Below the pieces are notes generated by a model. That model worked only from the letters and a program-made list of their open reading frames with translations, was not told where the DNA came from and did not search any database. The position numbers and the translations under genes were made by a program. This document shows positions 2,610-7,243 of a DNA stretch of 64,000 bases, in pieces (position 1 is the first letter of the stretch; each line of letters begins with the position of its first letter). This DNA comes from a virus, in the IMG/VR virus record IMGVR_UViG_3300026488_000011, positions 96,001-160,000 of that record; one strand, 5' to 3'.

Positions 2610-3235
2610 CTCTTCTCCTTCTCTATGGTTTTTACTAATAGTTCTAACAGCCTATCTACTTTAGATTTATCACCCCAGATCGCGATCATAAATTCTCCAG
2701 TTATCATAGCGTCATTATGTCTCAACACTATTTTTTCATCATGACCTATATTGTTACTAAGAATTGTGATTGTTTTCTTATATAGGGATTCTAATTTGTC
2801 TGCTCCAGTTTGTCCATATCGATCCGCAAACTCTTTTATGTTTTCGATATAGATGAAGTAAAGACCTAGCGTCATGACTTCCTCACCGTACTTTGCCATA
2901 GTGGAATTCATGATACCTGCTTTTAGTATATGCTCGCTATCTTCATTATCTTTATCAAACAGTGCTTCCGCTGACACCATAATAGGACATTCGCTCTTTA
3001 TTGCTTCGTATTCTCTATCTGATTCCAAAATTTCATCTTCGGTCCTATCTAGGATATCGAAAACGCTATCTAGTTCTTCTAGTAAATTTGTTAATTTACC
3101 ATTTGTCACAAATGTTAAACGCTCGATATTTAGCCCTGTAATGGTGCTGTAAAACGTAGCAGACGGAGTATTATCGCCAGATAATAATAAGTTGTCTACC
3201 AACCTGTTCATATTACCAAATCTCACATATCTCAT
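2606..3235 (-). CDS. Hypothetical protein with degenerate, truncated GGDEF-like C-terminal domain
   Basis: LGLYFIYIENIKEFADRYGQTGAD...R...ITGEFMIAI aligns by eye with the GGDEF pattern LxxxDIDxFKxxNDxYGHxxGD...RxGGDEFxI; catalytic residues not conserved. Confidence 0.5.
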   Translation of the reverse strand: MRYVRFGNMNRLVDNLLLSGDNTPSATFYSTITGLNIERLTFVTNGKLTNLLEELDSVFDILDRTEDEILESDREYEAIKSECPIMVSAEALFDKDNEDSEHILKAGIMNSTMAKYGEEVMTLGLYFIYIENIKEFADRYGQTGADKLESLYKKTITILSNNIGHDEKIVLRHNDAMITGEFMIAIWGDKSKVDRLLELLVKTIEKEKR

Positions 3236-3272
3236 TTCTACCTCCTTTTATTTAGTTCTTATTCTCTACTTA

Positions 3273-3280
3273 GTAATATA
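3273..3280 (-). promoter_or_regulatory. Putative early (virion-RNAP) promoter TATATTAC
   Basis: Matches the phiKZ early promoter consensus TATATTAC; variants TATATTAT/TATATAAC/TATATAAT lie 30-60 nt upstream of six other minus-strand genes. Confidence 0.55.
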
Positions 3281-3312
3281 TAGATTTATTATTCTAGAAA
3301 CGAAGAAAAAAA

Positions 3313-3337
3313 AGGTGCAGGGAGTTACCCTGCACCT
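3313..3337 (-). terminator. Intrinsic terminator after nvRNAP beta' exon 3
   Basis: 10-bp perfect stem AGGTGCAGGG/CCCTGCACCT followed by a U-tract on the minus strand; overlaps the stop codon. Confidence 0.8.
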
Positions 3338-3546
3338 AACAGCTTTCTAGCTACTGGATCGTCTTCAGGACTACGGCTATCTTCTCTCATGTGTGTAAAG
3401 TTAGATAGCGTAGCCACTGTGGTAGACGGTATATATAAGTTTTTATTAACCTTACCGTCTATGTCTATGATGTTGTAATGTGGAGAAAACTTCTTAGCTA
3501 TCTCCGCCATCTTATTATCTAGTAATATAGTAGCATTCATTTCGTC
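3325..3546 (-). CDS. rpoC: Non-virion RNA polymerase beta'-like subunit (phiKZ gp55/56.1-like), exon 3
   Basis: Starts GAC GAA ATG AAT (D-E-M-N) directly after the intron terminal G at 3547; completes NGDFDGDEMN; matches the beta' continuation DQM-type motif. Confidence 0.88.
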   Translation of the reverse strand, partial: DEMNATILLDNKMAEIAKKFSPHYNIIDIDGKVNKNLYIPSTTVATLSNFTHMREDSRSPEDDPVARKLLGAG

Positions 3547-3962
3547 CGTGATGTTCAGACAGGGTCGTTACTCCTGTCCCGCGGCATTACCCGCAGCTCT
3601 AGCTTTCACTAGAGACCAGACTATACCATCACCCTTTACCATAGGATCAATTATCCCTTAGGCAGTCGGGTGCCCTCCGTTTCGAACTCACTTGAGTCCT
3701 ACTCTACTCGGTTTTCACTATTCCGTTTCCAGAATAGCTATCCTTTCGACAGTCGTTGAACACACACCATATCCATTTGGACGTAGGTGCTTCGCTGCGG
3801 ATCGTCCTATACTAACGAGCTTTTTACTATACCATGGAGCACTCGCCTCCCCATGCCCTTATCCGGTTTCCCGGATAAGTTAGTACTCATTAGCTTCAGG
3901 ATGTCTCCGCAATTAGGAGGGTTTTTAACTAGAGTATTTCTACTCTAGGACAGCCAGTATTA
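3547..3962 (-). ncRNA. Group I intron 2 (ORF-less, IA-like, 416 nt)
   Basis: 5' splice GGT|TAA; P1 GACGGU/GCUGUC with terminal U-G; P3 CCCUCC/GGAGGG; Q GAUCCGCAGC; R GUUCAACGACUG; S GGUAUAGUC; extra helices between P7 and P3'; ends in G. Confidence 0.9.
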
Positions 3963-3971
3963 ACCGTCGAA
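3963..3971 (-). CDS. rpoC: nvRNAP beta'-like subunit, 9-nt micro-exon 2 (TTC GAC GGT = F-D-G)
   Basis: Exactly supplies the missing FDG of the DFDGD motif in frame; flanked by the terminal G of intron 1 and the U|TAA start of intron 2. Confidence 0.88.
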
Positions 3972-4383
3972 CGAGTACAATGTACTCGGACCATATCTTC
4001 ATCCCTTACCATAGGATAGATCATCCCTTAGGTAGTCGGATGCTCCCCGTTTCCCATCCAATTAGATGGTACCCTACTCGCTTTACCAGTAGTTACACTA
4101 CCAGCGGGCAGTCTTACCTTACCCTCACTATTACTATACCTTTCGGTATAGTCGCAGCTTTCGGTGGCCTCTGAACACATCCCATATCTATAAAAGACGT
4201 AGGGACTTCGCTGCGTCGATTCCGCAACACTATGACGTTTTTACCATACTCGTCGCTTCCATTACTGGGACGAGTATCATACTCGGTTTCCCGGTATGAG
4301 TGGTAGTCATAGCTTTTACACGGTTCCCGCAGTTAGGGGAGTATTTTGCTAGAGTATTACTACTCTAGGGTGACCTCGACCCG

Positions 4384-5673
4384 TTAAACTTTAACAACTC
4401 TTTTAATACCCAGAGAATCTATTATAGGTACATTTTTATCTTTTATGCAGTTAATGATGGTCTTTTGACTTACGTTAAAATGTCGAGCTGTCTCTCGTAT
4501 GCCCTTGAATTCCTTCTTTGTCCCGTCTTTAAATTCTACTAATATAGAAGTACTCCTAGAATAGTTGACTAAATTATCCATACACCACTTACCATTTTTC
4601 CATAACACCCAATCATTTATACGGTAACATTTGTCATCGTTTAGAAATTTTGCTAACTTAGCTCCGCTAATCTTTAAAAACTTTTTAGCTGGCTTTATAC
4701 CATTAAATTCTTTTACTTCACCTGTAACTAAATTTTTAACTTTCACCGGTTCTTTAGATTGTTTTTTATGTAGTTTAAATAATTCATATCTTTCATGGTC
4801 CTTTAAAACATCCAATAACATAGAATCCTTGTATAGGTAACCTTTTTCACCAGTCAATTTCCTCCACAATTTAGTCTTGTTATTATAGAACTCCAATTCG
4901 CCAGATTCTTTATTTCTAACGATTATACCCCATGGTAAATCTATTAAACTAGGATCCATAAGATACTGCCTATAACTATTGTCGTCTGCTAAATAATATA
5001 ATTCATCAGGTTCTGTCTCTGAATCAGAGGTCTTGCTAAACCAAGACGGGGTCTTCTTGTCAGATATAGTAGATTTACTTAACCCTAATATTTTACTCAC
5101 CCTGTTTAAATTACTACAAAACCAGATCCTTTTATCTAATACATTTGTTAACACATACATACCTAGCTTTAAGTTTGTTCTTGTATGTACGTTAGCAGAA
5201 TTTTGTTCCATGGTAGTCCAATGAATATTTTCTAAACGATTGTCCTTTTTATTGTTATTTTTATGGTCTACGATATAATCTGTAACAAAATCATTATTCG
5301 GCAACCATGCATATGCCATAAGGCGGTGTACTGTCGTTCTGTAGTGAGAATGTGTTTGTGTTGTGATTATGACACAATTATAACCGCTGCAATCAGATGT
5401 TTTTAATTTGGTGTTTGTTATTAAGTCATAAACATTTCCTACCTTATCTACAGCATACCTAGGCGCTATTGGGACAACAGCATATTCTTTCTTTGTTCTC
5501 ACACTGCAAAATACAACAGGCCTATCAAACATTGGTATATGTACTACTTCATACGGACCATTGCCTTGTCTTATCCTGGCAGGAACGTACTTTATGATGT
5601 TCTTTAACCACTCTAAACCTTTTGGGTATTTGTAATTCTCTGGGTATCTTATAAATTGTTTTTTGATCTTCAT
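4384..5673 (-). CDS. Intron-encoded HNH homing endonuclease with C-terminal NUMOD1/IENR1-like DNA-binding repeats
   Basis: VHRLMAYAW...DHKNNNKKDNRLENIHW HNH motif; repeats VKNLVTGEVKEFNGIKPAKKFL and EFKDGTKKEFKGIRETARHF. Confidence 0.88.
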   Translation of the reverse strand: MKIKKQFIRYPENYKYPKGLEWLKNIIKYVPARIRQGNGPYEVVHIPMFDRPVVFCSVRTKKEYAVVPIAPRYAVDKVGNVYDLITNTKLKTSDCSGYNCVIITTQTHSHYRTTVHRLMAYAWLPNNDFVTDYIVDHKNNNKKDNRLENIHWTTMEQNSANVHTRTNLKLGMYVLTNVLDKRIWFCSNLNRVSKILGLSKSTISDKKTPSWFSKTSDSETEPDELYYLADDNSYRQYLMDPSLIDLPWGIIVRNKESGELEFYNNKTKLWRKLTGEKGYLYKDSMLLDVLKDHERYELFKLHKKQSKEPVKVKNLVTGEVKEFNGIKPAKKFLKISGAKLAKFLNDDKCYRINDWVLWKNGKWCMDNLVNYSRSTSILVEFKDGTKKEFKGIRETARHFNVSQKTIINCIKDKNVPIIDSLGIKRVVKV

Positions 5674-5676
5674 TCT

Positions 5677-5710
5677 TAACTCCTTTTTAAGTACTCAGTA
5701 TAAGGAGTTA
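5677..5710 (-). promoter_or_regulatory. RBS-sequestering hairpin of the homing endonuclease gene
   Basis: UAACUCCUU pairs perfectly with AAGGAGUUA (contains the Shine-Dalgarno), 16-nt loop. Confidence 0.7.
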
Positions 5711-5749
5711 TTGTTTTAAAAAATGCTGTGTTTAACGGGTCTATAACGC

Positions 5750-6964
5750 ATCACCGTTTGGCGCTTTGATAGTCATCATGTTTACACCGATGGTCTTATC
5801 TTCGATATTAGTTTTGAATTTAGTTATATAATAGAGTTGACTAGACCCCATTAACAAGCTAGGATTCCTGTTAAATATTACAGGGATTCCTTTATAAGGA
5901 GATTCTTCTATCAACTCGTTCAGAATTTCTTCTATTACTGGATAATGCTTGTTGACGGCTTCAAAAACTAGGTTAGAAGCTTCTTTATACGTGTATCCTC
6001 TTTTTAAGAGCTTATTTATAATATGCGGTCTAAATGCAGTAGGACCTATTATCCATGGTACATGCAACACATCATAATCTTCGCTGGTAGGGAGTGAGGT
6101 GATTACCGCTCTGAAGGTAAAATGACTACGAGTACCATAGATATGTTTTCTCACCATTCCTTTTTTACCGGATAGCTTTTCTTTACTATATTTGATAAAG
6201 AGCTTAGCTATCCCGGAGATTATTTTACCTACACCATTCTCTACCTTTTTACTGTAAGGATCCATGTTTGCTAACTTTACTGCTAATAGCGATATATCGA
6301 TAACGTCTCCTAACATAGTAGTGGTATAAGCATCCTTCCCTGTTACTTCCATTACAAATAGTCTCTTATTCACTAACGGTAAATAATCTACTAGGAGTTT
6401 ATCCCTATTCCTTTTCCATTCCTCTAGCAATCTCTTGGCTTTCTTATCCTTTTTATTGGATTTAAACACAGAATTATTAGCTATATAGAGCAATATTTTC
6501 TCTATGTTATTTATAACGTTTAGATACCCCCTACCTCCTATTATATTTTTGATAGAATGGAGATATGTAGGTATCTTAGGAGGATTATAAGAAGTATCTG
6601 CTAACCAGCGTAGCCCGTCTATTCTTTTACCTAATATAGATGTGAGTTGATTCCAGAAATGCGGATTTAGGAATTTTAAATCATCCCTGAACTTCTCTAT
6701 CCATAGTAGCGGCTTTATTATGTCAAAAGCTTTCACTACAGAAGTACCGCATTTAGGACATGTCTGACCGAGTCTCCATGCACCTTTGAAATACCCGCAC
6801 TCGCATTGTGGTATGATGGAAATTTCGTCCTCGTATTGAGTAAACAACAGCTTTTTCATTTTCTCAGGTTCGACGTCGGTTATTTTAAAGTTGTTGAGAA
6901 TTAACTTACGATCTGTTTCGTGGAAATATTGATTTAGATCATTATAGTCTTGTACTATTGGCAT
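5750..6964 (-). CDS. rpoC: Non-virion RNA polymerase beta'-like subunit (phiKZ gp55-like), exon 1
   Basis: Zn-binding CECG...CPKCG; GKKGMVRKHIYGTRSHFTFRAVI (beta' GKxGRFRxNLLGKRVDYSGRSVI); FNRNPSL; ends APNGD at the splice site; spliced product 481 aa. Confidence 0.9.
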
Positions 6965-6982
6965 TCTTCCTCCTTTTGTTTG

Positions 6983-7243
6983 TTACGTGTTATAATGGTC
7001 AATTTGTTCAAATGCGTCGATTAGGCCTAAATCGAGCATTTCGTTTATGATAAGTAATAATTCATCTGCGTATTGATTAATTACTAGACGATCCTTAATA
7101 AGACGTTCGTCTAAAGTAACTACTACGCAGACATCCCTTTTACAAGGTTTTACGAAAACGCATCTAGATAAGTTTTCGGTACGTTCCATGATAAATTCAT
7201 GGATTGTTTCTGGTTCTTCAATTGTGAACAATAGGTACCGCAT
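6983..7243 (-). CDS. Hypothetical protein (86 aa)
   Basis: ORF with GGAG RBS. Confidence 0.6.
   Translation of the reverse strand: MRYLLFTIEEPETIHEFIMERTENLSRCVFVKPCKRDVCVVVTLDERLIKDRLVINQYADELLLIINEMLDLGLIDAFEQIDHYNT

Follow-up and report, generated by a model that had tools for sequence, protein, structure and literature searches.

Two sibling group I introns flank a nine-nucleotide exon in the metal-site codons of a giant-phage RNA polymerase gene

The window analysed here, a 64,000-nucleotide stretch of DNA, forms part of a 185,491-bp record with terminal repeats that belongs to a giant phage, with a hydrothermal-vent metagenome as its possible source. Its minus strand carries an nvRNAP β'-N gene of the phiKZ gp55 type, which is interrupted twice and so divided into three exons (Table 1). 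Exon 1 is about 30% identical to phiKZ gp055 (tblastn against PHIKZ055: 29.9% over 99% of the query, E 8e-48) and also matches 290 jumbo-phage records or homologues; a protein search with the same exon returned 263 metagenomic homologues, and a megablast search of isolated phages with the locus gave no match. In translation, the frame of exon 1 stops coding after NGD and continues into non-coding sequence. Joined to the micro-exon and exon 3, it reads NGDFDGDEMN, an NADFDGD-type metal site as found in intronless homologues, with whose C-termini exon 3 agrees. The spliced β'-N subunit would comprise 481 residues, and each of its three catalytic aspartates is encoded on a separate exon.

Table 1 Features of the interrupted β'-N gene (window coordinates)
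Feature	Position	Strand	Description
Exon 1	5750..6964	minus	405 codons; ends AAC GGU GAU (NGD), first catalytic Asp; from translation
Intron 1	3972..5749	minus	Group I, 1778 nt; ends with G3972; endonuclease gene in P1 loop
Closing stem, 5' strand	5730..5741	minus	Perfect complement of 4389-4378; 12 bp, closes endonuclease-gene loop
Homing endonuclease gene	4384..5673	minus	429 aa, HNH_3 and NUMOD1; between 5' splice site and guide sequence
Closing stem, 3' strand	4378..4389	minus	Holds endonuclease stop codon; overlaps P10 strand by 3 nt
P10 strand of intron 1	4375..4380	minus	GUCGAG; pairs with micro-exon nt 1-6
P1 strand of intron 1	4369..4374	minus	GUCACC; pairs with exon 1 end GGUGAU (5755-5750), U.G at splice site
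P9 hairpin of intron 1	3972..3988	minus	Single, short; abuts or takes in terminal G (fold)
Micro-exon	3963..3971	minus	9 nt; UUC GAC GGU (FDG), second catalytic Asp; read directly
Intron 2	3547..3962	minus	Group I, 416 nt; no ORF; ends with G3547
Guide of intron 2	3949..3954	minus	GCUGUC; pairs with micro-exon nt 4-9 GACGGU (3968-3963), U.G at splice site
Three-hairpin 3' domain of intron 2	3558..3614	minus	P9, P9.1, P9.2; fold -28.8 kcal/mol, z -2.67
3' hairpins of intron 2	3614-3597, 3596-3579, 3578-3558	minus	Fold; followed by 11-nt tail
Exon 3	3325..3546	minus	73 codons; starts GAC GAA AUG AAU (DEMN), third catalytic Asp

Both interruptions have the hallmarks of group I introns. In each, the 5' splice site follows the U of a U.G wobble formed with the guide in P1, and the terminal guanosines, G3972 and G3547, stand immediately before in-frame exon codons. 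The P3 and P7 strands that build the pseudoknot of the P3-P8 core pair in six of six positions within each intron, with compensatory differences between the two. Across five family members, both introns and three relatives, compensatory changes fall in 41 of the 96 consensus pairs. Against the Rfam model RF00028, intron 2 scores 79.3 bits (E 1.7e-18), above the gathering threshold of 50 bits, while the core of intron 1 (4386-3967) reaches 38.4 bits (E 2e-8; 28.2 bits in another search), which is significant yet below that threshold. The core of intron 1 is 63-75% identical to intron 2, depending on the aligner. On these features we class the two as sibling group I introns. An additional helix proposed by RNAalifold between the guide and the 3' strand of P7 (columns 8-12 with 398-403) was rejected, because the alignment lacks the exons and a P3/P7 pseudoknot is beyond what the program can draw; P7 was checked separately.

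Intron 1 owes most of its length to a predicted homing endonuclease gene, whose reading frame (5673-4384) matches PF13392 (3.7e-8) and PF07453 (1.1e-9), the HNH and NUMOD families. The ribosome-binding site of this gene sits within a 9-bp hairpin (5710-5677, minus strand), in which the Shine-Dalgarno sequence pairs with an upstream complement. The hairpin is conserved in the closest relative of the locus, L003 (5378-5412), with changes in the loop and one A-U pair of the stem replaced by G-U. By analogy, it resembles the translational sequestration of I-TevI in the T4 td intron, as reportedly described by Gibb and Edgell in 2010, a study cited in PMC11878797.

All three exons, the two introns and the endonuclease gene recur in L003, where the micro-exon is identical. 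The exons of L003 are 66-68% identical to those of the window, its endonuclease gene 84%, its intron cores 94-96% and its micro-exon 100%, a gradient indicating that the cassette was transferred or homogenised as one piece after the host genes had diverged. The closing stem recurs in L003 in an 11-bp version, and variants of the intron 1 P9 hairpin in L003 and in other samples either sit in the loop or preserve the pairing. Contigs from three further samples also span the micro-exon. With cmscan at E 0.01, L003 yielded no group I intron despite this near identity of the introns; we treat that result as a filter artefact and a negative Rfam result on the longer locus as unreliable here. Viral contigs scanned for a 17-nt P8 pattern gave only the known relative and three chance matches in coding regions (L004, L005 and L007). 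Over positions 3200-7100, contigs from four DNA runs contained no intron-less or single-intron joints, an observation with no bearing on absence.

These comparisons also bear on whether both ribozymes are intact. One of them, most likely that of intron 1, might be defective, the gene being a decaying or helper-dependent copy: the core of intron 1 falls short of the Rfam threshold of 50, the terminal G of that intron can be drawn into the P9 stem, and its P1 loop has taken up an insertion of 1.3 kb. We consider such a defect very improbable, since the core helices are all intact and carry compensatory changes, the core keeps 94% identity to that of a relative with exons at only 68%, and no group I intron besides these two turned up when the entire 185-kb record was searched. 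Furthermore, the phiKZ intron of the same family bears an endonuclease gene at the same place, in a gene reported to contain an intron (PMC11512511).

The micro-exon is recognised from both sides. As an earlier note on this DNA had claimed, its nucleotides 1-6 (UUCGAC, 3971-3966) pair with GUCGAG (4380-4375) to form P10 of intron 1, and nucleotides 4-9 (GACGGU) pair with GCUGUC (3954-3949) to form P1 of intron 2; both pairings can be read directly. P10 is matched in six of six positions in the canonical register, for which we estimate a chance expectation of about 0.003 (0.375 to the sixth power). L003 repeats the whole arrangement, with identical micro-exon and guide sequences though its exons are only 66-68% identical. 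The pairings between micro-exon and guides are more than chance. The two helices have GAC (3968-3966) in common and cannot both form fully, nine nucleotides being too few for a 6-bp P10 and a 6-bp P1, so the overlap results from the geometry of so short a middle exon. Two further premises of the same note stood as well: the 3' ends differ, intron 1 having a single hairpin (3988-3972) and intron 2 three in the predicted fold, and skipping of the nine nucleotides, a multiple of three, would keep the frame and give NGD-DEMN by the exon translations. The splicing order and the switch that it built on them fared less well; the structural premise holds and sequential use is a fair reading, but neither a fixed order nor a switch follows.

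Duplex energies were computed for the competing helices. The full P10 of intron 1 is worth -7.5 kcal/mol, and limited to the free UUC it would come to +0.9 kcal/mol. The P1 pairing of intron 2 is lengthened by ViennaRNA to an 8-bp local hairpin of -8.1 kcal/mol. Since the micro-exon cannot hold both 6-bp helices and a three-base P10 is unstable, sequential use of the exon is a fair inference. Moreover, only three bases lie between the terminal G of intron 1 and the P1 helix of intron 2, which makes simultaneous docking in both active sites sterically unlikely and sequential action expected. P10 is needed only in the second step of intron 1 splicing, so that either order can in principle give the full mRNA. 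Ordered or sequential splicing is plausible on this geometry.

In the course that we favour, the P1 of intron 2 would form first, as a local 8-bp hairpin, once it is transcribed. Cleavage at the 5' splice site of intron 1 could proceed independently of intron 2, and ligation of its exons would follow either through a transient or partial P10 or after the exit of intron 2 has freed the full 6-bp P10. Full-length mRNA would be the normal product, and exon skipping, if it occurs, a by-product. Once intron 2 is removed, the joined micro-exon and exon 3 (3968-3963 and 3546-3544) read GGUGAC, which is fully complementary to the intron 1 P1 strand (4374-4369). This mimics GGUGAU, the true end of the 5' exon, and could act as a decoy for the intron 1 guide. 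L009, a relative with a single intron, has GGC as the equivalent codon and so lacks the GGUGAC mimic.

Alternatively, intron 1 could act first, having folded before the guide of intron 2 appears; its docked P10 would then win the micro-exon, exon 1 would be joined to it, and only afterwards would the P1 of intron 2 form. Transcription does proceed from intron 1 through the micro-exon to the intron 2 guide, 9-17 nt later, the full P10 is close to P1 in stability, and a perfect 6-bp P10 has been kept despite the presence of intron 2. The interval is, however, very short: transcription reaches the intron 2 guide within a fraction of a second of the micro-exon, whereas group I catalysis is far slower. 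A local hairpin also normally outcompetes a long-range helix, and the P10 strand is partly tied up in the closing stem of 12 bp, whose last three nucleotides are the GUC of that strand (guide region 4380-4369, GUCGAG-GUCACC); P10 thus faces competition on both its strands. We therefore regard an order with intron 1 first as rather unlikely.

The strength of P10 varies across the intron family. In our reading it has 6 bp in intron 1 of the window and in intron A of L040, and 4-6 bp in L009, where a Tyr codon stands in place of Phe, the guide segment differs correspondingly and the P1 element GUCACC is the same as in the window and L003. It has about 3 bp or is absent in L017 (intron 2), in intron A of L010 and in phiKZ. 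That relatives do with a weak or absent P10 indicates that the helix helps but is not indispensable. Within the window, a perfect 6-bp P10 goes with a minimal P9 in intron 1, and intron 2 has an elaborate P9 domain and no P10 (duplex energy +0.6 kcal/mol). Intron 1 may therefore be more reliant on P10 than most of its relatives, in which case the overlap would matter functionally.

A stronger proposal, that of the earlier note, is that competition for GAC amounts to a regulatory switch. It would set an obligatory splicing order, and a controlled in-frame skip to NGD-DEMN would tune or poison polymerase assembly; the predicted subunit lacks one catalytic Asp and the spacing of the motif. In its fullest form, the two ribozymes would be mutually exclusive on the exon and impose an obligate order together with a tunable dominant-negative β'-N, folding kinetics serving as a timer or throttle on nvRNAP. 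The overlap is real and the skip preserves the reading frame. The P3 and P7 strands of the siblings can also cross-pair in five of six positions, so that a hybrid fold joining exon 1 to exon 3 is conceivable. There is a precedent, too: Twort orf142, with three similar introns, yields transcripts lacking an exon, according to PMC3073962, which cites Landthaler and Shub 1999.

For skipping, exon 1 would nevertheless have to react at the 3' splice site of intron 2 while bound to intron 1, and the intron 1 guide offers no in-register P10 to exon 3; only an out-of-register 3-bp match (-3.9 kcal/mol) was found. Pairing of cognate P3 and P7 strands, six of six against five of six across the introns, also favours separate folds. 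Selection against cross-pairing between siblings was considered as a general rule and rejected, the P7 strands of the L040 pair being identical in our reading. Among the protein homologues of exon 1, neither a spliced nor a skipped product was seen. The relatives, with micro-exons of 11-13 nt at other site pairs and in many cases one intron or none, display no conserved regulatory design, and the cassette seems to have arrived by recent transfer instead of evolving together with the gene. No copy seen differs in the guide sequences or the micro-exon, an invariance that would also be expected of a selected device. By the Twort precedent, exon skipping between the two introns of the window is a legitimate idea; a regulatory or poisoning role for it is unsupported, and we judge both the switch and its fuller form highly improbable.

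The wider gene family suggests how such an arrangement may arise. For a census of the insertion sites, 120 representatives listed among the 263 protein homologues were classed by the point at which the open reading frame breaks off; the counts are approximate, since the frames read on into the intron. The frame runs unbroken through the motif in about 45 clusters and stops at one of six or more positions in about 70: about 11 at an upstream RN site, about 13 after Nx, about 17 after NxD, one after NxDxD, about 15 after NxDxDG and about 12 after NxDxDGD. The NADFDGD codons thus contain at least five insertion points within 21 nt, and one more lies at an RNP motif about 38 codons upstream. At the DNA level, 14 loci are intronless at the motif. 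Single-intron alleles occur as well, with an intron at the first site only (L009), after the last Asp only (L021) or only at the site of the window's intron 2 (L042 and L044). The endonuclease of L009 is 28% identical to that of the window. In the phiKZ-like Pseudomonas phages OMKO1 and PaZh_1, the match to exon 1 ends at residue 367-370, at the upstream RN site, which hints at an additional intron at that site in some isolated phages.

The metal-site codons of the jumbo-phage nvRNAP β'-N gene are thus a dense hotspot, occupied in more than half of the sampled genes, in which micro-exons arise repeatedly. This matters for annotation, because gene callers render the interrupted β'-N genes as truncated proteins of 400-430 residues and pipelines call such genes truncated.

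Tandem introns with a micro-exon recur in four other lineages, at other pairs of sites. The middle exon has 11 nt in L010 (7045-7055), 12 nt in L017 (10211-10222), where a third intron lies upstream in the gene, 12 nt in L040 (7476-7487) and, in our reading, 13 nt in the Escherichia phage Goslar (168214-168202 of the record; L055 1215-1203, minus strand). L040 contains two compact introns that score 78.9 and 93.7 bits, both above the Rfam cut-off. Its 12-nt exon, as we read it, accommodates a 6-bp P10 on nucleotides 1-6 beside a 6-bp P1 on nucleotides 7-12, with no overlap. Among the tandem pairs seen, only the 9-nt exon of the window and L003 forces the two pairings to overlap. Given the side-by-side fit in L040, whether the pairings overlap depends on the pair of hotspot sites that happens to be filled. 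Tandem pairs at different site pairs, in a hotspot where more than half of the genes are occupied, favour the accumulation of selfish elements; the micro-exon looks like a pile-up of selfish introns, which fits better than a designed regulator.

We accordingly assign a probability of roughly 60% to the reading that two sibling introns accumulated 9 nt apart at a hotspot, that their overlap is geometric, that full-length mRNA is the normal product and that any skipping is a by-product. An HNH-bearing intron 1, together with an ORF-less intron 2 travelling with it, would have settled in the magnesium-site codons of NADFDGD, and removal of both ribozymes would restore the 481-residue subunit. The window holds the most compressed micro-exon, and the tightest natural packing of two group I ribozymes, seen in this gene family and hotspot. 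The locus offers a natural test case for the need for P10 in vivo, for how adjacent ribozymes avoid misfolding and for skipping between sibling introns.

Group I introns at active-site codons of phage genes, jumbo-phage polymerase genes included, are already known (PMC11620839, PMC11512511), and several systems share parts of the present arrangement. In phiKZ, the genes gp55, gp56 (HNH) and gp56.1 reflect a group I intron in the same catalytic motif of nvRNAP β'-N; introns in gp55 and gp56 have been cited previously (PMC11512511). The phiKZ intron scores 75.6 bits against RF00028, has the same kind of 3' end as the window family and likewise carries its HNH gene between the 5' splice site and the ribozyme core. 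In contrast to the window, phiKZ has one intron, inserted after the Asn codon, which leaves the whole ADFDGD on the second exon, with neither a micro-exon nor shared exon bases.

Goslar (NC_048170, gp247 ... gp185) is the closer parallel in architecture. In our reading, two group I-type introns flank a micro-exon in the same motif and one of them contains an HNH gene, although the record annotates just one Intron_gpI; we found no published description of the Goslar micro-exon in the literature. Its insertion sites are different from those of the window, and 13 nt accommodate P1 and a short P10, so that overlap is not forced.

Other likenesses are more distant. Twort orf142, a different gene, resembles the window in having several similar group I introns within one phage gene, the siblings of the window being 63-75% identical; exon-lacking transcripts were observed in Twort, according to PMC3073962, whereas skipping in the window is hypothetical. 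In PhiPA3, the gp210 intron in vRNAP β also places an HNH endonuclease within a group I intron at conserved catalytic-region codons of a jumbo-phage RNAP (PMC11620839), but it is a single intron in a different subunit. The role shown for gp210 is interference competition between phages and not splicing control; more generally, the intron endonucleases of jumbo-phage polymerase genes have been shown to serve as weapons against co-infecting phages (PMC11620839). Very short exons between group I introns in a conserved enzyme gene are also found in mitochondrial cox1, for example in placozoans (PMC5436844). Unlike the phage gene of the window, the cox1 genes are organellar and in some cases trans-spliced, and their introns are not siblings at a catalytic metal site (PMC5436844).

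Intron 2 itself, which is 95.7% identical in L003, has further matches elsewhere. Contigs from another vent sample match its 3' part (3547-3634), and the similarity breaks off precisely at the splice site (3547) or at the edges of helices, which suggests that the 3' domain of intron 2 also occurs in other sequence contexts. When isolated phages were searched with positions 3547-3975, core segments of intron 2 were 72-88% identical to unannotated stretches in 55 records of Twort-like Staphylococcus phages. The same segments have matches in the second RNAP intron region of phiKZ-like phages too, and together these matches indicate that the intron family is widespread across very different phages.
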